10,212 bases of DNA from a virus (Duplodnaviria > Heunggongvirae > Uroviricota > Caudoviricetes): IMG/VR virus record IMGVR_UViG_2740892487_000003, one strand, 5' to 3'. Of this stretch, positions 1 through 10,212 are shown piece by piece. The notes under the pieces are model-generated. The model was not told the origin of the DNA. It ran no database searches and was given only the letters and a program-made list of their open reading frames with translations. A program made the translations under genes and the position numbers. Each line of letters starts with the position of its first letter. Within the stretch, counting starts at the first letter, position 1.

Positions 1-1
1 C

Positions 2-157
<156 letters not shown>

Positions 158-740
158 CTCGGTGGCCAGTTTTTGTTGACCACTTCATGTGCAGGGAGGC
201 TACAGTGTGCCACTGATTATTACCGCCAGTGACATAACGTCTCATCAGCCCGTCAGTAGAAAAATCAGTGCCCGTCATTTCGCAGGTATTTTTCAGTGGA
301 TGACCGGTATTTGTACTGAAAATATACCGCCATTCAATCCGCTGACAGACGAAGATAACTAACCTGTTATGGTTTTTAAGGGAGAGAGGAATATACCGGC
401 AGACAGTTTGAAACCTCAGCCACTTATTCTTCCTGATCACAGGTAATCATATATGGCAGACTGTAATACAGTCGCTTGTACTGAAAAGTATTCTGTATAA
501 AATATCCGTATTCATATCAGCACAAGGGACCATCAAATCCCTGCAGCACTCCTTACGTCAGTTATCCCGCATCACCCTGTGAGTACAGGATTTTTTATGA
601 GGTTACTTTTTTATTGAATGTATATAAATAATGAATAACCGCGGATTCTGATAATCCCCCCTGCAGGGAGCGGTAAATAGTAAATACATCAGTTAATACC
701 GTTTGTCTTTTTTAACAAAGAAAATAATCCTAGAATAATT

Positions 741-2213: not shown

Positions 2214-2235
2214 TGGTGCGAAGGCCGGACTCAAA
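2214..2235 (-). other. attP-like core: 22-nt copy of a tRNA 3' end (close to tRNA-Leu leuX), with no tRNA body upstream
   Basis: Minus strand reads TTTGAGTCCGGCCTTCGCACCA; the leuX 3' end as I recall it is TTCGAGTCCGGCCTTCGGCACCA (one substitution and one missing G). The sequence upstream on the minus strand (plus 2236-2300) is AT-rich and not tRNA-like, so this is a core copy, not a tRNA gene. P4 integrates at the 3' end of leuX (established). Confidence 0.5.
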
Positions 2236-2425
2236 TATCAAAATAAGTCAATGATAAAAAAACAAATAATAAAAAAACAAAAAATGAAATATGCCCCCTT
2301 TTGTGCCCCCACTGTTTTTCTGACCAATCTATTTTCAACCCATCAACAAATCGGAAAGTTAACTAATTTTTAATCAGTGAGTTTGGATCCGTAGCTCGGA
2401 TCCAAACCAGTGCATCTTTTACCCA

Positions 2426-2735
2426 CATAAAAAATTTTTTTTCGGAAGAACTGTTCACACTGTTCACCTTTCTGTTTTCTCCTTTTATTTCAGTTGGATA
2501 GGTGGTGAATAATGGGTGAAGGGTGAACATTCGATTCTTCACCTCCGGCATTCTGCCGGTGTGACTCATACCGGTGATTAATCCTCCGCACTGAAAATCA
2601 CACAGGAAGAAAAAAAAGTTTTTTTTTGATTTGATTGTTCACACTGTTCACCTTTCGTTTTTTTTCTTTTTAATTTCAGTGTGATAACGGGTGAATATAC
2701 GGTGAAGTGTGAACAGTGGATTGTTCACCTTCGGG
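2426..2735. repeat. crr-like region: two direct repeats of about 125 bp, each carrying TGTTCACC/GGTGAACA iterons
   Basis: Unit 1 about 2426-2550 and unit 2 about 2612-2735, offset 183 bp. Each opens with an A-run/T-run palindrome (2425-2444; 2619-2636), then TGTTCACA + TGTTCACC (2452-2459, 2462-2469; 2636-2643, 2645-2652) and inverted copies (GGTGAACA 2522-2529; TGTTCACC 2722-2729) plus degenerate octamers. P4 crr is described as two direct ~120-bp repeats with alpha-binding octamers (recalled). Confidence 0.6.
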
Positions 2736-2747
2736 GGATGTCGGGAT

Positions 2748-2774
2748 AAAAAAAAAGACCGGCAGATGCCGGTC
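2748..2774 (-). terminator. Intrinsic terminator immediately downstream of alpha
   Basis: Plus strand A9 (2748-2756) then gaccggc-agat-gccggtc (2757-2774). On the minus strand this is a hairpin followed by U9, 8 nt after the alpha stop codon (2782-2784). Confidence 0.5.
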
Positions 2775-2781
2775 AGGTGGG

Positions 2782-5116
2782 TCAGGCTATTGCAGGGTCG
2801 TCACATTTTGGCAGCCAGTCGCCGTAGCTTTCCTCTTTCAGCGTCAGGTTGGTCTGTATCCCCTGTTTGGTATGGCGCTTCTCGTAATTCAGTCCGTATT
2901 CCTTCAGCATCACCGGCAGCCCCAGCCCGAACATTTTCAGACTGAGTACATTCCGGTAGCCGTTTGCCTCCATGTAGGCCAGATAGGCGTGATAGAGGTA
3001 TTTACGGTAATTACGCGGGATGATACTGGCGTTCCCCATATACATGCCGCTGGTCTGCGGCAGGGTTTCCAGATAGCCGATAAAATCAAACGTCGGGTCG
3101 GCATCCCGTTTGATGTTCAGTGCCTCGTCTGAGTTCTGCTGGGACTGAAGCAGTGACCGGGCGAGCATCGGGTCGCTGAATTTCTGCATCAGGTGACGCA
3201 CGATGACCGCCAGCTCGCGGGTGATTTTGTCCTTAAGCTGCGGGTCGCGCTCCTGAGGGGCTATCTGTTCCGGGAAGTGAATAATCACCCGCCGGCGTGA
3301 CACGCCGCCGCTGCGGTCGGTGAAGCGCATCGGGTTATTGTTCACGGCCAGAATCACCGCCGGGATGTGCGTGGAGTACGCATCCCGGTATTTCGGGTCA
3401 ACGGACACCGCATCGCCGCCGGTGATGGCCTTGAGTCCGGCTCCGTCGCCGCTCCATTTTTCCTGGTCCGGCAGGCGTATCAGTGAGAAGCCAGTTAACG
3501 CGGCACGTTCACGCGGGGATTCCAGCGTCTCAATGGTGGCCGACGTGGCGTTATCCTCCCCGGCCAGCAGGGTGGCTATTTCGGCCATGATACTTTTGCC
3601 GCTGCCGCCGGGACCGGTCACCTCCAGAAAGAGCTGCCAGTCGTAGCGGTTTGCCAGCACCATAAACAGTGCGGCCAGAATCACGTCGCGTTTTTCCGCA
3701 CGGCCACCGGCGGCACGGTCAAGCCAGCGCCAGAACGCGGGGGCGTGGGTTTCCAGCGTTTCCCCTTCCACCGGCGGGGTGAAATCCACATCGCACAGGG
3801 TACGCATCCAGTGTGACGGACTGTGCGGGTGGAACGTGCCGTTCTGCGTGTCGAGCACGCCGTTACGAAAGCCAATCAGGCGGCGGGAGGGGGCTTCCTG
3901 CTGCGGAATAATCAGCTTCAGGGTGTCCACCACGGAGGCCACCTTCCCGGAGGAGAACGGCGCGCGCAGACGCTGAAACAGCCCGGCCACATCCCGGGCA
4001 AAGTCCTGTGGCGGCAGCACCTTCCAGACACCATTTTCATAGCGGGACAGAAGCTGGCCGTTGGCATCGACCGCGAGCGCCTCGCCGTAATGCTCATAGA
4101 TACGCATGGCCTTTTCGCTGGTACTCATGGCGGAAAACTCCGCTTCGCTCATGGTGTCGAACGGGCTTTCAGCCGGTGGCCGGATGGCATCATAAATGGC
4201 CTTACGGGTGGCTTCCCCGCCGTACTGCGTGAAGGCATCATTCCAGTCACCGAAGACCGGCGGCAGGGCAACAACACCTTCACACGCATCTGCGGCTGCG
4301 GCGGCTTTTTTTCTGGCCGTCACCGCTGAGGTCACGGTCAGCAGCAAGGACAATCTGACAGGCCGGATGCTTCTGCCGGGCAAGGCTGGCCAGAGAAAGG
4401 AGATTCACGGAAGAAAGCGCCACCATCACCGTTTCACCGGTCAGGTGATGCACGGTAAGTGCGGTCGCGTATCCCTCCGCTATCCACAGACGTTTTCCGG
4501 CCTGATTCTGTCCTTCAAGGGTGTGACAGGTGCCCCTGACCTGTCCGCCTTTCAGGGTGCGCTTACGGCCGTCAGCACTGATTAACTGAAGGTTAACCAG
4601 TTCGCCGCTGTCGTCATACAGTGGCACCACAAGGTCACCGGCACGCCAGCTCACGCCACCGGCTCTGTGTGTGCCGGTCAGCATCCGGCATTCCCGGCCG
4701 GGAAAGCCCTTGCGGGTCAGGTAGGCGTTACCGGTTCCGGGACGGGTTTTCGCCATCAGGGTTTGTGCCAGTGCGGCGGCGTTCTTCCGGGCGGCTTCTG
4801 TTTCAGCACCGGCGGCGGCCGTCACTGCCGGGCCAGCCGGGGGCAGGCTGCCGGTCACGGCAGCCACCTTTGCTGCCGCGTCGGACGGGGAAACACCAAA
4901 CACCTTTTCAACCAGTTTCAGGCCGTCACCGGCACCACACTGATTGCAGTACCAGGTGCCGCGCCCCTCCCTGTCATCAAAACGGAAGCGGTCACTCCCG
5001 CCACAGACCGGACAGGGCTGATGACGGTTTTTCAGCACCTGAATCCCCAGCGCCGGGAGAATACGCGGCCAGTGGCCGAGCGCATGGCTGACGGTGGCGG
5101 TTACGTTCATTTTCAT
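2782..5116 (-). pseudogene. alpha: P4 alpha-type primase-helicase (zinc-binding primase, TOPRIM, Walker-A helicase, C-terminal iteron-binding region), split by a +1 frameshift in an A7 run
   Basis: N-terminal ORF 4280..5116 (start MKMNVTAT, AGGAGAA 7 nt upstream) has CPVCGG...YCNQCG zinc motifs and a TOPRIM-like IAEGY...AADRD. C-terminal ORF 2782..4383 has GPGGSGKS. The frames switch at plus-strand T7 (4306-4312): the N frame reads GDGQKKSRRSRRCV*, the C frame reads ...ARKKAAAAADACEG. Combined length is about 776 aa, matching P4 alpha (777 aa, recalled). Confidence 0.85.
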
Positions 5117-5130
5117 GGTGTTGTTCTCCT

Positions 5131-5451
5131 TCAGTGCAGTACCGGCGCTTTTATGTGACGGGCACAGAGTTCATCCATCACAACCAGCCCGAGAAAGGAC
5201 AGCGACGGCGCGGCCTTCAGGGGGCCGGATTCCATTAAATCTTCCAGCAGGGCACAGGCTATCTGACGCCCTTTTTCCTCACCGTGCTGGCGCAGATAAA
5301 AGCCTTCCAGCTCAGCGGCGATGGCCGCCTCCAGTGACTCAAGGGTGAGATGCGGGTAGCGGTGCTGACGTTCGCACACGGTCAGCCAGGCACAGGCGAC
5401 AGCGCGACGGTAAAGGGCAGCGCGTAAGACGGGTGGTAAGGGTGTTTTCAT
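5131..5451 (-). CDS. Small hypothetical protein of the P4 left operon (106 aa; orf106-like)
   Basis: [25 protein letters not shown]... with GGGAGGAAA upstream of the ATG; same strand as and 14 nt upstream of alpha. Function unknown. Confidence 0.6.
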
Positions 5452-5586
5452 TTGTTTTCCTCCCTGTGACAGATGACTGCATTCCGTGCCGGTTGCATTA
5501 ACTGATAAGGCATATCTGCGTCTCCTGAAGACGTGCGTATCCCTGCGCGAATACGCACATTTAATTTTTCGGGTGTCGTTTTTTAA

Positions 5587-6042
5587 TTACAGATAATTGC
5601 GGTAACTGTTATCCGGGGTGATTTCCGGGTCAGGCTCCGTGCGGGGAATTTCCCGCCATTCCCGCGCCACCGGTGCCGCCCGGCTGACCGGAACAGTGTC
5701 CTGCGGGTAAATATCCAGATATTTCTCCCGCCATTTCTGTAATTCCGGGTCTCCGGCCATTTCTTTCAGTACCGCATGCCGGTTTACGGGGCTGCGTTTA
5801 AACAGGTCAGGACGGTCACAGGTAAATTCCCGCAGAAAACGCCCCAGCGGGATGTCTGTGGTGCGTCCGTCAGCGAGGATACGCACAAGGATACTGAATT
5901 TACGGCGGTACGGGTTCCAGACAATGTCCGGGCAGCGGTATGGCATTTCCCACGGAATACCGTCTTCCAGAATGCCGACCACGGCCACATCGGGAAAACC
6001 GGCAGAACGGTAAATCTCACCGGGCTGGGGAAAATCAAACAT
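5587..6042 (-). CDS. Hypothetical protein, 151 aa (P4 orf151-like)
   Basis: ORF MFDFPQPGEIYRSAGFPDVAVVGILEDGIPWEMPYR... Its ATG (6040-6042) overlaps the stop of the upstream epsilon-like ORF (ATGTTTGA), suggesting translational coupling. The length matches P4 orf151 (recalled). Confidence 0.6.
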   Translation of the reverse strand: MFDFPQPGEIYRSAGFPDVAVVGILEDGIPWEMPYRCPDIVWNPYRRKFSILVRILADGRTTDIPLGRFLREFTCDRPDLFKRSPVNRHAVLKEMAGDPELQKWREKYLDIYPQDTVPVSRAAPVAREWREIPRTEPDPEITPDNSYRNYL

Positions 6043-6316
6043 GCGTCCTGTCTCCCCGGTCTTTCTGCTGGGCGAGAAAATCGCGGCACAGGCCTTTGGC
6101 TTTCAGCTCATTCAGCACAAAATCAATATCTTCATTCAGGTAGCTGAAAATATGCGGAATGTAGAGCTGATGCAGGCCGGAGAGTTCACGGTGAATCAAA
6201 TCACCCCCAACAAACTGGGATACGGCGCTGGCGCGGTTGAGCTTATGGTAAGCCTCAATGCTGAGGTGTTCACGGGCGTCATGACGCGCTGAGACGGTCT
6301 GAGGGGCTTTTTTTAT
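6035..6316 (-). CDS. Epsilon-like small protein (93 codons) with no canonical start codon; first codon ATA in a TAATA stop/start overlap
   Basis: Open frame (ATA)KKAPQTVSARHDAREHLSIEAYHKLNRASAVSQFVGGDLIHRELSGLHQLYIPHIFSYLNEDIDFVLNELKAKGLCRDFLAQQKDRGDRTHV*. Its end overlaps the orf151 start. There is no in-frame ATG, GTG or TTG with a usable RBS; GGAGGT lies 12 nt upstream of the ATA. The position directly upstream of orf151 matches where I recall P4 epsilon; identity is inferred. Confidence 0.35.
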   Translation of the reverse strand: MKKAPQTVSARHDAREHLSIEAYHKLNRASAVSQFVGGDLIHRELSGLHQLYIPHIFSYLNEDIDFVLNELKAKGLCRDFLAQQKDRGDRTHV

Positions 6317-6513
6317 TACGCACGGGACACCTCCACCACCGGCAGACGGGCAGCAAGGGAGAGCACATAGTCACGGACAAGGGAACGGCGGGCGCTGCGT
6401 TCATCACCGGCGACGGTGCGAAGCATGCAGATACGGGGATGACGGTCTGCGCGACGGACAGCCGCAAACACAAAGACAAATTCAGGGTGTGAGGGGATAA
6501 GGGTCGTAGCCAT
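6316..6513 (-). CDS. Small ORF (65 aa) with a strong RBS, first translated gene after the leader; kil/eta-like by position
   Basis: ATG at 6513 (minus) preceded by GGAGGT with 7-nt spacing; [65 protein letters not shown]. The longer 166-aa version in the ORF track reads through an intrinsic terminator and is not supported. Confidence 0.35.
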
Positions 6514-6761
6514 AAGGCAACCTCCGATAACAGCGTAAATGACGCTATCGCCGGAGTTTCCACGCTCGATGGCGATAGCCCAGACGGGGGTGGAAATACC
6601 GGCGTTATCGGAAACCGGCCAGCCCGGAGGCTGCCCCGCCTGAGCTACCATTGACTCTGCGGTATAATGAGCGGACGCGGGCAGAATGCACGGAGTGCCA
6701 TTTGCTCGACTGACCACACACCACACCATAATCTGGCGCTCTGTGGCGTTGATTGCGACAC

Positions 6762-6784
6762 AAAAAAAAGACGCATGGCGCGTC
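6762..6784 (-). terminator. Intrinsic terminator downstream of alpA/vis
   Basis: Plus strand A8 (6762-6769) then gacgc-atggc-gcgtc (6770-6784). On the minus strand this is a hairpin followed by U8, about 130 nt after the alpA stop. Confidence 0.5.
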
Positions 6785-6912
6785 ATATGTCGCCGATAAC
6801 ATACTCGGGTTTCCACGCCCGGCTGCCGATTTTGCGGCAGCGGAAAAACTATATCCGCAAATGCCGGAAAAAGGCAAGCCAGAAAAAGGGACTTTTTGCA
6901 GAGCGGGCATCA

Positions 6913-7178
6913 TCATGCGTCGTACCCCCGTTTGCGTCCGGCAATGCGCCCGGCCATCCATGCGGTGACTTCAGAGTGCAGCCAGGCCACATTTTTACCG
7001 CCAAGACTCACCTGCGGCGGAAATTCCCCCTTACGGATAAGTTCATAGATGGTCGAGCGTGACAGGCCGCACAGGTGCATCACTTCCGGCAGACGTAAAA
7101 ACGCTCCTGCGTGATGTCCGGCAGCGGCATCAGTGGCGTCACTGGGGCGGGAGACGGGGAAGAAAAAACAGATTGCAT
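6913..7178 (-). pseudogene. alpA: AlpA/Vis-family DNA-binding regulator/excisionase, frameshifted in a T5 run
   Basis: ATG at 7178 (GAGG 9 nt upstream) gives MQSVFSSPSPAPVTPLMPLPDITQERF, then the frame stops. The +1 frame continues LRLPEVMHLCGLSRSTIYELIRKGEFPPQVSLGGKNVAWLHSEVTAWMAGRIAGRKRGYDA*, the AlpA-type helix-turn-helix. The switch is at plus-strand A5 (7097-7101); one more T would restore an 88-aa protein. Confidence 0.7.
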
Positions 7179-7321
7179 CGGGCTACCTCGTTAATGTCCA
7201 TACAGCACCGGATAAGTCCGTCCGGCTTCGGGTAGCGCTTTATTTTGTGAATATTTTCAGCAGACGCAACAGGGGGGATTTGTTCCGGCAGTCTTATAAT
7301 GCTTGTGTGTTTTTTGTTCAT

Positions 7322-7352
7322 CTCCACTTAAAGTCATTTAAAGCCACTTAAA
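7322..7352. repeat. Three tandem 10-bp direct repeats (CCACTTAAAG / TCATTTAAAG / CCACTTAAAG)
   Basis: Seen directly at 7322-7352 in the alpA-sid intergenic control region; a candidate protein-binding array. Confidence 0.4.
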
Positions 7353-7452
7353 GCAATTCGTAATTTTTATAGTGAAATACAAATCGTTTTTTCTTATTCA
7401 TTCCCGGCGAATTAATAAAAAATAAAAAAGTAATAAACAGCACAAAAAGTCC

Positions 7453-7563
7453 ATGAACGGGTGAACAGTGGTGAACAGACGGTGAACAGTCATTACTGCG
7501 ATTGTTCACCCTTTAACTTACTGTATTACTTATCTTTTTTCTTATGGTGAACAGAGGTGAACA
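7453..7563. repeat. ori-like iteron cluster: six perfect octamers (5 x GGTGAACA, 1 x TGTTCACC)
   Basis: GGTGAACA at 7460-7467, 7470-7477, 7481-7488, 7546-7553, 7556-7563; TGTTCACC at 7503-7510; plus a partial at 7453-7459. Same octamer as the crr-like region, about 4.9 kb away, consistent with the P4 ori/crr arrangement (recalled). Confidence 0.6.
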
Positions 7564-7643
7564 GTAAAATATAAAAAAAACAAACAGTAAGACGGTTTTT
7601 CCTGCGACCTTTTCCTGGCTTGCCGGTGTGAGGATGAGTCTCC

Positions 7644-7661
7644 TGTGTCAGGGCTGGCACA
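7644..7661 (+). promoter_or_regulatory. Psid-type late promoter activator site (TGT-N12-ACA dyad, the Ogr/Delta binding motif)
   Basis: TGTgtcagggctggcACA at 7644-7661. The dyad centre lies about 80 nt upstream of the sid ATG, consistent with activator binding near -55 of a start site about 25 nt upstream of sid. Confidence 0.5.
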
Positions 7662-7733
7662 TCTGCAATGCGTCGTGTTGTTGTCCGGTGTACGTCACAA
7701 TTTTCTTAACCTGAAGTGACGAGGAGCCGGAAA

Positions 7734-8468
7734 ATGTCTGACAACACCATCCCTGAATATCTGCAACCCGCGCTGGCACAACTGGAAAAGGCCAGAGCCG
7801 CTCATCTTGAGAACGCCCGCCTGATGGATGAGACCATCACGGCCATTGAACGGGCAGAGCAGGAAAAAAATGCGCTGGCGCAGGCCGACGGAAACGACGC
7901 TGACGACTGGCGCACGGCCTTTCGTGCAGCCGGTGGTGTCCTGAGCGACGAGCTGAAACAGCGCCACATTGAGCGCGTGGCACGCCGGGAGCTGGTACAG
8001 GAATATGACAATCTGGCCGTGGTGCTGAATTTCGAACGTGAACGCCTGAAAGGGGCGTGTGACAGCACGGCCACCGCCTACCGGAAGGCACATCATCACC
8101 TTCTGAGTCTGTATGCAGAGCATGAGCTGGAACACGCCCTGAATGAAACCTGTGAGGCGCTTGTCCGGGCAATGCATCTGAGTATCCTGGTACAGGAAAA
8201 TCCGCTCGCCAACACCACCGGCCATCAGGGCTACGTCGCACCCGATAAAGCTGTCATGCAGCAGGTGAAATCATCGCTGGAACAGAAAATTAAACAGATG
8301 CAAATCAGCCTCACCGGCGAGCCGGTTCTCCGGCTGACCGGACTGTCAGCGGCAACACTCCCGCACATGGATTATGAGGTGGCAGGCACACCGGCACAGC
8401 GCAAGGTGTGGCAGGACAAAATAGACCAGCAGGGAGCAGAGCTTAAGGCCAGAGGACTGCTGTCATGA
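7734..8468 (+). CDS. sid: Capsid size determination protein Sid (244 aa)
   Basis: ATG at 7734 with GAGGAG 7 nt upstream (the ORF track start at 7716 is an upstream GTG). MSDNTIPEYLQPALAQLEKARAAHLENARLMDE...; length and position (first gene of the sid-delta-psu operon) match P4 Sid. The stop overlaps the delta start (ATGA). Confidence 0.85.
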   Translation: MSDNTIPEYLQPALAQLEKARAAHLENARLMDETITAIERAEQEKNALAQADGNDADDWRTAFRAAGGVLSDELKQRHIERVARRELVQEYDNLAVVLNFERERLKGACDSTATAYRKAHHHLLSLYAEHELEHALNETCEALVRAMHLSILVQENPLANTTGHQGYVAPDKAVMQQVKSSLEQKIKQMQISLTGEPVLRLTGLSAATLPHMDYEVAGTPAQRKVWQDKIDQQGAELKARGLLS

Positions 8469-8965
8469 TTTACTGCCCGTCGTGTGGACATGTTGCTCAC
8501 ACCCGTCGCGCACATTTCATGGACGATGGCACCAAGATAATGATTGCACAGTGCCGGAATATTTATTGCTCTGCGACATTTGAAGCGAGTGAAAGCTTTT
8601 TCTCTGACTGTAAAGATTCAGGAATGGAATACATTTCAGGCAGACAGAGATACCGCGATTCACTGACGTCAGCCTCCGGCAGTATGAAACGGCCGAAAAG
8701 AATGCTTGTTACCGGATATTGTTGTCGGAGATGTAAAGGCCTTGCACTGTCAAGAACATCGCGGCGTCTCTCTCAGGAAGTTACCGAGCGTTTTTATGTG
8801 TGCACGGATCCGGGCTGTGGTCTGGTGTTTAAAACGCTTCAGACCATCAACCGCTTCATTGTCCGCCCGGTCACACCGGACGAACTGGCAGAACGCCTGC
8901 ATGAAAAACAGGAACTGCCGCCAGTACGGTTAAAAACACAATCATATTCGCTGCGTCTGGAATGA
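8465..8965 (+). CDS. delta: Delta late-gene transcriptional activator (duplicated Ogr-type zinc finger, 166 aa)
   Basis: MIYCPSCGHVAHTRRAH... plus a second module YCCRRCKG...YVCTDPGCG; two Ogr-like Cys4 halves. The 166-aa length matches P4 Delta. Confidence 0.85.
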   Translation: MIYCPSCGHVAHTRRAHFMDDGTKIMIAQCRNIYCSATFEASESFFSDCKDSGMEYISGRQRYRDSLTSASGSMKRPKRMLVTGYCCRRCKGLALSRTSRRLSQEVTERFYVCTDPGCGLVFKTLQTINRFIVRPVTPDELAERLHEKQELPPVRLKTQSYSLRLE

Positions 8966-9038
8966 GGGCTGCCGGTTAACTCCGGCCGTCGCCGCACACC
9001 GTATTTTTATTCTTCAGCATGATGAGAAAGAGATAACG

Positions 9039-9611
9039 ATGGAAAGCACAGCCTTACAGCAGGCCTTTGACACCTGTCAGAATAACAAAGCAGCATGGCT
9101 GCAACGCAAAAATGAGCTGGCAGCGGCCGAACAGGAATACCTGCGGCTTCTGTCAGGAGAAGGCAGAAACGTCAGTCGCCTGGACGAATTACGCAATATT
9201 ATCGAAGTCAGAAAATGGCAGGTGAATCAGGCCGCCGGTCGTTATATTCGTTCGCATGAAGCCGTTCAGCACATCAGCATCCGCGACCGGCTGAATGATT
9301 TTATGCAGCAGCACGGCACAGTACTGGCGGCCGCACTGGCACCGGAGCTGATGGGCTACAGTGAACTGACGGTCATTGCCCGAAACTGTGCCATACAGCG
9401 TGCCACAGATGCCCTGCGTGAAGCCCTCCTGTCCTGGCTTGCGAAGGGTGAAAAAATTAATTATTCCGCACAGGATAGCGACATTTTAACGACCATCGGA
9501 TTCAGGCCTGACGCGGCTTCGGTGGATGACAGCCGTGAAAAATTCACCCCTGCGCAGAACATGATTTTTTCGCGTAAAAGTGCGCAACTGGCATCACATC
9601 AGTCTGTGTAA
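9039..9611 (+). CDS. psu: Polarity suppression protein Psu (190 aa; capsid decoration and Rho antagonist)
   Basis: MESTALQQAFDTCQNNKAAWLQRKNELAAAEQEYLRLL...; 190 aa, third gene of the sid operon, matching P4 Psu from memory. Confidence 0.85.
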   Translation: MESTALQQAFDTCQNNKAAWLQRKNELAAAEQEYLRLLSGEGRNVSRLDELRNIIEVRKWQVNQAAGRYIRSHEAVQHISIRDRLNDFMQQHGTVLAAALAPELMGYSELTVIARNCAIQRATDALREALLSWLAKGEKINYSAQDSDILTTIGFRPDAASVDDSREKFTPAQNMIFSRKSAQLASHQSV

Positions 9612-9640
9612 AACTCCCCGAAAATCTGCCCGTTTTTACT

Positions 9641-9680
9641 GAAAAAAGCCATGCATCGATAAGGTGCATGGCTTTGCATG
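9641..9680 (+). terminator. Hairpin terminator downstream of psu
   Basis: A6 (9641-9646), stem gccatgca (9647-9654), loop tcgataagg, stem tgcatggc (9664-9671), then TTT and a T-rich tail (gcgttttcc). Confidence 0.45.
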
Positions 9681-9775
9681 CGTTTTCCTGCCTCATTTTC
9701 TGCAGACCGCGCCATTCCCGGCGCGGCCTGAGCGTGTCAGTGCAACTGCATTAAAACCGCCCCGCAAAGCGGGCG

Positions 9776-9794: not shown

Positions 9795-10027
9795 TGCGCG
9801 CCAATAGCAATGATGCACATTTATTTTCGAACCCTGAGTACATCATAGATGTATGCAGATAAACGATTATGGATCAGTGGCAAATGCATAGAGTAGGTTT
9901 GATGCTCTTACGAGGCATGCAGGTGAACAATACCAACACATAATATATTGAACCTACCCAAAAAAATGAGTAGGCATACTTGTTAAAAGTATATTTCTGA
10001 TCAATGATATAAAAATAAGCACTCTAG

Positions 10028-10212
<185 letters not shown>

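Follow-up and report, generated by a model that had tools for sequence, protein, structure and literature searches.

A putative antisense-RNA immunity region, carrying a specificity allele other than that of P4, in a P4-like satellite prophage of Escherichia coli

Does the leader ahead of a 65-aa open reading frame (ORF) on the minus strand of a viral DNA encode an immunity RNA, and if so, of which type? The question is raised by a stretch of 10,212 nucleotides, hereafter the window, taken from the IMG/VR virus record IMGVR_UViG_2740892487_000003 (Caudoviricetes). An earlier note made from the letters alone had proposed that 6513-6620 is a candidate immunity-RNA leader, in which complementary segments, one of them over the ribosome-binding site (RBS) of the first translated ORF, resemble by analogy the arrangement of the P4 immunity region. 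Minus-strand features are written here in the direction of transcription, with the higher coordinate first.

The element and the layout of its leader

Comparison with P4 showed that positions 2214-9775 of the window are a P4-like prophage with 97.6% identity to P4 positions 4078-11624 (approximately 7.5 kb). The nearest complete genome, at approximately 99.5-99.6% identity, is that of E. coli GPEC1446, whose copy of the element adjoins a tRNA-Leu gene. The nearest relative has the gene order of P4, namely integrase, psu, delta and sid, followed in divergent orientation by vis, the leader, epsilon, orf151, orf106 and the alpha primase. Annotations of both P4 and this relative place the leader in the surroundings expected of a P4-like satellite: vis/orf88 precede it, epsilon, orf151, orf106 and alpha come after it, and sid-delta-psu are transcribed divergently. 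In addition, insertion-sequence ends were seen on the window flanks, and the window contains many single-base homopolymer indels.

The minus strand at 6900..6250 was found to align end to end with the P4 immunity region, which is the leader of the P4 left operon, with 93.4% identity over 651 nt. Examination of Rfam showed a full-length match to the C4 antisense RNA (RF01695) at 6655..6568 on the same strand, scoring 77.9 bits against a gathering score of 45, a full-length match to the isrK model (RF01394; gathering score 50; Table 1), and a match to c4-a1b1 (RF03163) at 6854..6802, also on the minus strand, of 51.5 bits, above its gathering threshold. P4's own DNA yielded C4 and isrK matches at the homologous positions. 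The C4 and IsrK structural families correspond to the CI RNA and seqA of P4 (PMC3632133). The likeness to P4 immunity that had been put forward by analogy only is therefore supported by the identity and the Rfam matches as one of homology. Judged by this homology, a P4-like satellite prophage of E. coli has its antisense-RNA immunity control region here. The system and its mechanism are already known; the window copy is, relative to P4, a new specificity allele.

The distribution of the leader was determined in complete E. coli genomes. The result showed that the whole leader is present in 1039 of 5426 genomes (approximately one in five). A 36-nt probe specific for the CI allele of the window detected this allele in 96 of the 5426 genomes, in one copy each time, and P4's own CI allele was found in 206 genomes of the complete E. 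coli set.

The span 6513-6620 that had been proposed for the leader proved too narrow, since the predicted CI RNA extends to approximately 6649 and an upstream target, a promoter and a terminator lie at 6762-6877. The positions of all features are collected in Table 1. Within the promoter-like site at 6877..6848, the -10 hexamer is aligned with the 'consensus -10 sequence' of the P4 record X02534. The site appears to correspond to PLE, the constitutive promoter of the P4 left operon, and would place the transcription start near 6841. We take the intrinsic terminator at 6784..6762 to correspond, by its position, to the site called t1 in the P4 literature. The CI RNA is encoded approximately 110 nt beyond this terminator, between the promoter-like site and the first Shine-Dalgarno (SD) sequence and ATG (6525..6511), that is, in the untranslated leader. 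Alignment showed that the kil-like ORF that follows is identical to its P4 counterpart in start, stop and length, and the kil region as a whole is nearly identical to that of P4. No Pfam family matched the kil-like ORF.

Table 1. Features of the immunity leader, in the order of transcription
Feature	Position	Strand	Sequence, basis or remark
Promoter-like site	6877..6848	minus	TTGCCT-18-nt spacer-TATAGT; sole sigma-70-like site in 6250-7350
seqA/IsrK-like 5' leader RNA	6841..6764	minus	Rfam RF01394 isrK, 74.7 bits, full length; two hairpins, single-stranded A1, terminator
Hairpin of seqA leader	6841..6822	minus
Hairpin of seqA leader	6821..6806	minus	A2 in loop
Target A2 (module 2, upstream)	6816..6810	minus	GUGGAAA; in hairpin loop; complement of CI junction UUUCCAC
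Target A1 (module 1, upstream; seqA core)	6800..6793	minus	GUUAUCGG; single-stranded; 8/8 complement of CI loop
Intrinsic terminator	6784..6762 (stem 6784..6770)	minus	GACGCGCCAUGCGUC plus U8 run; terminator scan; 3' end of isrK model
Predicted CI RNA, ~80 nt	~6649..6570	minus	Rfam C4 and fold; ends predicted
CI basal stem, 16 bp	6649..6634 with 6589..6574	minus
CI hairpin 1	6633..6620	minus
CI hairpin 2	6619..6598	minus
Module 1 (B1, seqB core)	6613..6604	minus	UUCCGAUAAC; loop of hairpin 2; allele-defining site
CI junction, 8 nt	6597..6590	minus	AUUUCCAC; single-stranded
Module 2 (B2)	6596..6590	minus	UUUCCAC; in single-stranded junction
GCCA tail, tRNA-like	6573..6570	minus	directly after basal stem
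2:3 hairpin	6579..6571 with 6552..6544	minus	GCUAUCGCC pairs with GGCGAUAGC; 9/9 inverted repeat; 18-nt loop carries C2
Target C2 (module 2, downstream)	6563..6557	minus	GUGGAAA; direct repeat with A2
3:4 SD-sequestering hairpin, outer stem	6556..6551 with 6527..6522	minus	CUCCGG/UCGGAG; minimum-energy fold
3:4 hairpin, inner stem	6549..6542 with 6536..6529	minus	GAUAGCGU/ACGCUGUU; minimum-energy fold
Target C1 (module 1, downstream; seqC core)	6531..6519	minus	GUUAUCGGAGGUU; includes SD GGAGG 6525..6521
kil-like ORF, 65 aa	6513..6316	minus	ATG 6513..6511; first translated gene of operon

The predicted CI RNA, its targets and the cis hairpins

Structure prediction on the minus-strand leader gave a fold of -47.4 kcal/mol for the predicted CI RNA, with a z score of -4.7. 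A small processed RNA had been anticipated by the earlier note; the candidate for it is predicted at approximately 6649..6570 rather than centred in 6513-6620. Across related loci, three of the 16 pairs of the basal stem change in a compensatory manner and 96% of cells are paired, and the tail is ACCA or ACCC in other genera. The possibility that the RNA is a tRNA or tmRNA was rejected, as a search with ARAGORN gave neither.

All strings quoted in the earlier note were located on the minus strand, none of them more than one base from its stated position: GGTTTCCGATAACGCC at 6601-6616, GCTGTTATCGGAGG at 6521-6534, GGCGATAGCGTC at 6541-6552, GCTATCGCC at 6571-6579 and GGAGGT at 6520-6525. An independent repeat search recovered the complementary segments and added upstream partners that had not been listed. 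It gave inverted repeats between 6523-6531 and 6604-6612 (9/9) and between 6604-6611 and 6793-6800 (8/8), an exact direct repeat of 6524-6532 at 6793-6801, and an approximate direct repeat between 6556-6568 and 6809-6821.

For the CI loop CCGAUAAC, the upstream partner is GUUAUCGG (6800..6793) and the downstream one GUUAUCGGAGG (6531..6521); for the junction UUUCCAC, the partner is GUGGAAA, which occurs at 6816..6810 and again at 6563..6557. Modules and two-part targets follow each other in the order that collinear antiparallel pairing requires. Recognition is bipartite, involving the loop plus the junction. Of the two targets, the upstream one, at 6816..6793 and with its own terminator, had not been listed in the earlier note. 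Downstream, the overlap of the last complementary segment with the SD of the 65-aa ORF was borne out: C1 covers GGAGG (6525..6521), and its interaction with the CI loop comprises nine Watson-Crick pairs plus G-U pairs, in a 13-nt pairing (6531..6519) that spans the SD.

The strength of the complementarity was compared with that of 2000 targets shuffled at the dinucleotide level. For the CI segment that is exposed (6618..6583), the predicted duplex energy was -35.9 kcal/mol against the upstream target region and -35.6 kcal/mol against the downstream region. Shuffled targets averaged -19.7 and -21.5 kcal/mol, respectively, and none of the 2000 reached the observed value for either target, so that the segments are more complementary than shuffled controls. 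Minimum-energy cofolding of the mature CI RNA with the kil leader gave intramolecular folds only, the hairpins concerned being stable. The CI junction also forms a strong predicted duplex with a G-rich stretch near 6342. As a target, this duplex was set aside as non-specific G/C pairing.

Two further hairpins can form in cis. The 9-bp hairpin described in the earlier note exists, but one base away from the position given, at 6571-6579 with 6544-6552 instead of 6572-6580 with 6543-6551. It is not a separate element lying between the segments, because GCTATCGCC forms the 3' side of the basal stem of the CI RNA and its pairing in the hairpin is an alternative one. Written in the RNA, GCUAUCGCC (6579..6571) comprises the 3' strand of the CI basal stem and part of the tail, and the 2:3 hairpin therefore cannot coexist with the lower CI stem. 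When forced, it costs approximately 10 kcal/mol relative to the minimum-energy fold. The hairpins were compared in 12 representatives from E. coli, Pantoea, Erwinia, Dryocola, Hafnia, Citrobacter and Cupriavidus. The result showed that the 2:3 pairing holds in 88% of cells and that three of its nine pairs change on both sides; one of these two-sided changes, 6573 with 6550, is in no other helix.

The 3:4 hairpin is part of the minimum-energy fold of both the precursor and the 3' fragment. In this fold the unpaired probability of the SD is approximately 0. The anti-SD/SD stem (CUCC/GGAG) and a co-varying inner stem are present in 11 of the 12 representatives, and the fragment containing the 3:4 hairpin has a predicted energy of -21.5 kcal/mol in the window allele versus -15.5 kcal/mol in P4. 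The similarity of GGCGATAGCGTC to the seqB loop reflects this cis hairpin (6556..6522), since both sequences can pair with the same downstream segment, the one in cis and the other in trans. On the basis of these predicted folds, the leader can be read as a chain of four arms with the alternative pairings 1:2, 2:3 and 3:4. Arms 1 and 2 are the 5' and 3' strands of the CI RNA, the latter together with the tail; arm 3 is GGCGAUAGC, and arm 4 is the seqC flank with the anti-SD.

Specificity alleles and their covariation

The leader was then compared with that of P4 position by position. The result showed 47 differences in 411 nt, 33 of which fall within the 81 columns of the six recognition sites (Fisher p = 5e-16). 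The differences in the six sites compensate one another, so that pairing is preserved. The CI loop is CCGAUAAC in the window versus CCUGUGAA in P4, the junction is UUUCCAC versus UUCUCAC, and the targets are GUUAUCGG plus GUGGAAA versus UUCACAGG plus GUGAGAA. The recognition sequences are thus not those of P4: five loop positions and two junction positions differ, and the targets are changed to match. The predicted non-cognate duplexes, whether of window CI with P4 targets or of P4 CI with window targets, are approximately 10-14 kcal/mol weaker than the cognate duplexes of the window. Because all six sites differ in a compensating manner, the element should be self-immune and should show no cross-immunity with P4; that is, it is predicted from sequence to be heteroimmune with P4.

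To place this allele among others, 93 loci that share an invariant hairpin-1 sequence were collected from complete E. coli genomes, one-per-species genomes and IMG/VR. These loci include no fewer than 12 module-1 alleles and no fewer than six module-2 alleles, which co-vary with the targets. Results also showed that the upstream target copies match the CI RNA in nearly all of the 93 loci in which they could be parsed. In a few related loci, seqA is mismatched to its own seqB, implying that the upstream interaction is not always maintained. Downstream, C2 matches B2 over 6-7 nt in all 26 distinct B/C variants, and over 7 nt in 25 of them. The pairing run of B1 with C1 is 8-12 nt long and reaches into GGAG in 21 of the 26 distinct variants, and is just 4-5 nt long in the other five (L052, L062, L008, L009 and L014).

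Cognate and non-cognate pairing was also compared among the 11 distinct leaders of the E. coli type. The cognate duplex had the lowest predicted energy against every seqC, and likewise against every seqA except in the recombinant leader L024. Four module-1 and three module-2 alleles occur among the E. coli-type elements, and nine of the 12 possible combinations were seen. The six sites are interleaved in the leader (A2-A1 ... B1-B2 ... C2-C1) and lie just 7-24 nt apart. That the alleles combine almost freely despite this interleaving points to short-patch conversion among the three copies or to repeated convergent re-coding.

Tentatively, and with more doubt than confidence, we suggest that immunity specificity in P4-like satellites is a two-module code, made up of loop and junction, accompanied by a conserved four-arm chain, and that both are possibly undescribed; neither the two-module code nor the four-arm chain was found in the searchable open literature. 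If the suggestion is true, the four-arm chain would couple the folding or processing of the CI RNA in cis to the exposure of the kil RBS and of the second target.

Proposed mechanism, rival explanations and known systems

The complementary segments might be functionless chance matches in a G+C-rich leader. The single matches are indeed short (7-9 nt), and the scan also found the strong non-specific duplex near 6342. However, the observed energies were unmatched in 2000 shuffles, the differences from P4 are clustered and compensatory, covariation extends over 93 loci, and the Rfam matches are above threshold. Chance complementarity is ruled out by the shuffles and the covariation, and we give this explanation almost no weight. 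According to another explanation, the stretch is simply protein-coding, and the product of a 199-codon ORF acts as an immunity or regulatory factor, which would account for both the conservation and the repeats. PGAP annotates a 'host cell division inhibitor Icd-like protein' over the leader in every E. coli genome inspected, and Pfam PF10554 (Phage_ASH) matches residues 22-146 with E = 1e-23; the 199-aa 'Icd-like' ORF and the Phage_ASH match cover exactly the RNA-coding stretch. Also in favour of a protein, the long ORF over the P4 leader may be translated from an upstream late promoter. On the other hand, the variation is concentrated at six short sites, where the changes compensate one another in RNA pairing and show no codon-position pattern; some relatives have a 9-nt deletion inside the ORF; the ORF is frameshifted in the window by an extra T at 6769; and three RNA covariance models match above threshold. 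Moreover, P4 immunity has been assigned to RNA from an untranslated transcript (PMC4825925). A protein-only explanation was rejected on account of the RNA-compensatory substitutions, the 9-nt deletion in relatives and the window frameshift, and a protein as the immunity factor is very improbable.

It could also be argued that the leader is mainly a switch in cis, alternating between 1:2 plus 3:4, with the SD sequestered, and 2:3, with the SD free, while the trans-acting RNA is secondary. The translation of kil, and hence termination, would then be set by the folding or processing of the same transcript. Such a switch is favoured by the conservation across genera of the 2:3 hairpin, with its three compensatory pairs out of nine, and of the 3:4 hairpin, seen in 11 of 12 representatives, as well as by the near-zero unpaired probability of the SD in the minimum-energy fold. 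A switch of this kind, however, gives no account of the upstream copy of both targets, nor of the covariation among the loop, the junction and both target pairs. The 2:3 hairpin is approximately 10 kcal/mol less favourable and has no evident trigger, the covariation of the cis hairpins rests on few independent lineages, and P4 immunity works in trans (PMC4825925). A leader that acts mainly in cis is accordingly very improbable.

The leader very probably operates by CI-RNA immunity of the P4 type, in which leader transcription, a processed CI RNA, bipartite pairing in trans, a block of kil and termination follow one another. This is directly supported by the homology, the RNA-family membership, the fold, the complementarity beyond chance, the covariation and the overlap with the RBS. 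In P4, processing of the untranslated leader yields the CI RNA, whose pairing with seqA and seqC results in premature termination, and superinfecting phage are subject to this immunity in trans (PMC4825925). From the literature on P4, P1 and P7, we infer that processing, trans action, the translational block and termination proceed likewise in the window element, in the following manner.

The constitutive promoter at 6877..6848 would make an untranslated leader, in which an approximately 80-nt cloverleaf-like CI RNA (~6649..6570) would fold. The CI RNA would be cut from the transcript, with RNase P making its 5' end, by homology with P4 and with c4 of P1/P7; the sequence itself holds a hint of maturation, in that the basal stem is followed by the tRNA-like GCCA tail. 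In systems of the P4 type, RNase P and PNPase take part in this maturation to a stable small RNA. The CI RNA would display two single-stranded modules, one in the loop of hairpin 2 (CCGAUAAC) and one in the junction (UUUCCAC), through which it would pair in trans and in collinear order with two bipartite targets carried by the operon's own transcripts. Pairing with the upstream target (GUGGAAA plus GUUAUCGG), just before the intrinsic terminator, would favour a stop after seqA. Pairing with the downstream target (GUGGAAA plus GUUAUCGGAGG), which includes the kil SD, would block the translation of kil, and the untranslated RNA would then be open to premature Rho-dependent termination inside the kil region, leaving the replication genes silent. 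In the predicted fold, the SD of the window allele is already strongly sequestered in cis, apart from any trans-acting RNA. By our own inference, the single-stranded GUGGAAA sites may serve as first contacts, after which the loop would invade the SD hairpin.

As this mechanism has been textbook phage biology since the 1990s, the finding mainly confirms that the system can be recognized from raw sequence. Its useful yield is a catalogue of many specificity alleles with three co-varying copies. The alleles predict mutual exclusion between satellites, and they form a natural set of orthogonal antisense RNA/target pairs. The label of an 'Icd-like' or 'Ash' protein, placed by annotation pipelines over the whole RNA leader, hides these RNA elements. 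A large survey of P4-like satellites is silent on the immunity RNA (PMC8628076).

Among known systems, c4 of P1 and P7 shares its Rfam family and clan with the window RNA (RF01695, RF03163, CL00128), and the similarity of the window to P1 is at the level of covariance models only. In P1/P7, the a' and b' segments of c4 pair with a1 b1 and a2 b2, an arrangement mirrored by Rfam RF03163; the window likewise has a c4-family RNA and duplicated bipartite targets, matching a1/b1 and a2/b2 of immI. Work attributed to Citron and Schuster in 1990 and to Hartmann et al. in 1995 reportedly placed c4 in the leader of the operon that it represses and described bipartite recognition, with targets duplicated upstream and at the RBS of the first ORF; allele-specific complementarity is said to underlie heteroimmunity, and RNase P to make the 5' end. 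In contrast to immI (c4-icd-ant), where the genes under control are icd and the antirepressor gene ant, the operon downstream of the window leader is the one for P4 replication, with kil, epsilon, orf151, orf106 and alpha, and no ant gene follows. The 'Icd-like' label is the one that PGAP gives to the long ORF spanning the leader.

The window leader at 6841..6764 also fits the isrK model of Salmonella Gifsy-1, including the two 5' hairpins and the terminator. IsrK has been described as structurally homologous to P4 seqA, and a processed RNA with a possible CI-like action follows it; in Gifsy-1, the short RNA activates orf45-anrP translation, leading to an antiterminator cascade (PMC4825925). 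Activation operates there, whereas repression is expected in the window, whose downstream genes are those of P4; the orf45-anrP-isrJ/antQ order was not found downstream of the leader, the synteny being that of P4 and not of Gifsy-1. Membership of the P1 or the Gifsy-1 type was therefore rejected: the RNA models match, but the downstream genes are P4's.

The closest counterpart is the P4 immunity region itself, which has the promoter, the terminator after seqA, the cloverleaf CI RNA, the downstream target overlapping the SD and the 65-aa first ORF in the same order. It differs from the window in that all six recognition sites are re-coded in the latter, compensatingly, and in that the SD-sequestering cis hairpin is stronger in the window allele. 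A similar divergence is reportedly found in phiR73, a P4-like element whose CI RNA and targets are said, in work attributed to Sabbattini et al. in 1996, to differ from those of P4 in a compensating manner and to confer a different immunity.

Allele combinations and mismatched alleles

Among the 93 related loci that share the invariant hairpin-1 sequence, the E. coli-type elements carry four alleles of the loop module (module 1) and three of the junction module (module 2), and nine of the 12 possible combinations were present. These combinations occur on two leader backbones, one with and one without a 9-nt deletion. The six recognition sites of the two modules are interleaved, with a spacing of only 7-24 nt (6816-6793, 6613-6590, and 6563-6519 of the window), and allele combinations at sites arranged in this way cannot easily be produced by ordinary crossing-over.

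A few P4-like elements (L024, L096, L053, L052, and L062) were found to have a seqA allele that differs from the allele shared by the CI RNA and its downstream target; in two of them, L052 and L062, the loop is matched by neither the upstream nor the downstream target. These elements are probably recombinants or decaying copies, and such loci would probe the importance of the upstream site.

An annotated reading frame over the RNA leader

The NCBI pipeline annotates an Icd-like ORF that spans the entire RNA leader in all of the E. coli genomes inspected. A Pfam search showed that PF10554 (Phage_ASH) covers residues 22-146 of the 199-aa product, and that the DNA under this match coincides exactly with the stretch coding for seqA, the terminator, and the CI RNA. 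The Phage_ASH protein family may consist largely of translated RNA genes.

Coordinates of annotated features, matches, and single-base indels
Feature	Position	Source or comparison
199-aa ORF, 'host cell division inhibitor Icd-like protein'	window 6316-6916, minus strand	NCBI pipeline annotation of E. coli genomes
Counterpart of the 199-aa Icd-like ORF	L016 (related locus) 5985-6584	
Adjacent isrK and C4 matches	L015 (related locus) 7293-7482	Cupriavidus basilensis (betaproteobacterial genome)
Single-base indels	window 7580, 7424, 7422, 7101, 6769, 6314, 4312, 2756, 2667, 2665, 2619, 2617, 2279, 2277, 2262, 2183, 1885	Comparison with nearest relative
Transposase fragment (insertion-sequence DNA)	window 1-187, left end	
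IS5	window 10023-10212, right end	IS5 copies of phage records, 98-99% identical

Single-base indels and borders of the window

Comparison with the nearest relative, which is about 99.5% identical, revealed 18 single-base indels, almost all of them a surplus A or T in the window. The alpha primase gene is split by indels into two ORFs (4280-5116 and 2782-4383), and an integrase-like gene at about 763-1970 is likewise disrupted. Within the leader, the surplus T at 6769 is the eighth T of the terminator U-run, and none of the 16 other aligned leaders has one. Taken together, the indels have the look of errors from long-read sequencing, not of decaying genes. In the window's genome, mobile elements lie on either side of the P4-like block.

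Related leaders in other hosts and phages

Complete P4-like leaders with 91-93% identity to the window were found on two short contigs of metagenome-assembled genomes in GTDB, L006 and L013, with the labels 'Clostridiales bacterium' and 'bacterium'. Both contigs are most likely mis-binned enterobacterial DNA. The Cupriavidus basilensis locus L015 has matching modules of its own: in module 1 the loop CCUUGGG is complementary to CCCAAGGAGG at the ribosome-binding site, and in module 2 the junction UCUCAC is complementary to GUGAGAA. The two-module design therefore reaches well beyond Enterobacterales.

For the portion of the leader that encodes the CI RNA, matches at 74-78% identity were also found in the linear plasmid-prophage phiKO2 (H4 and H5) and in several related Klebsiella phages (H6-H11), and some of the stretches matched in these records are labelled 'transcriptional repressor' or 'Icd-like protein'. 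Immunity RNAs of the c4 type are known beyond satellites, and the phiKO2 and Klebsiella phage matches fit this known spread.
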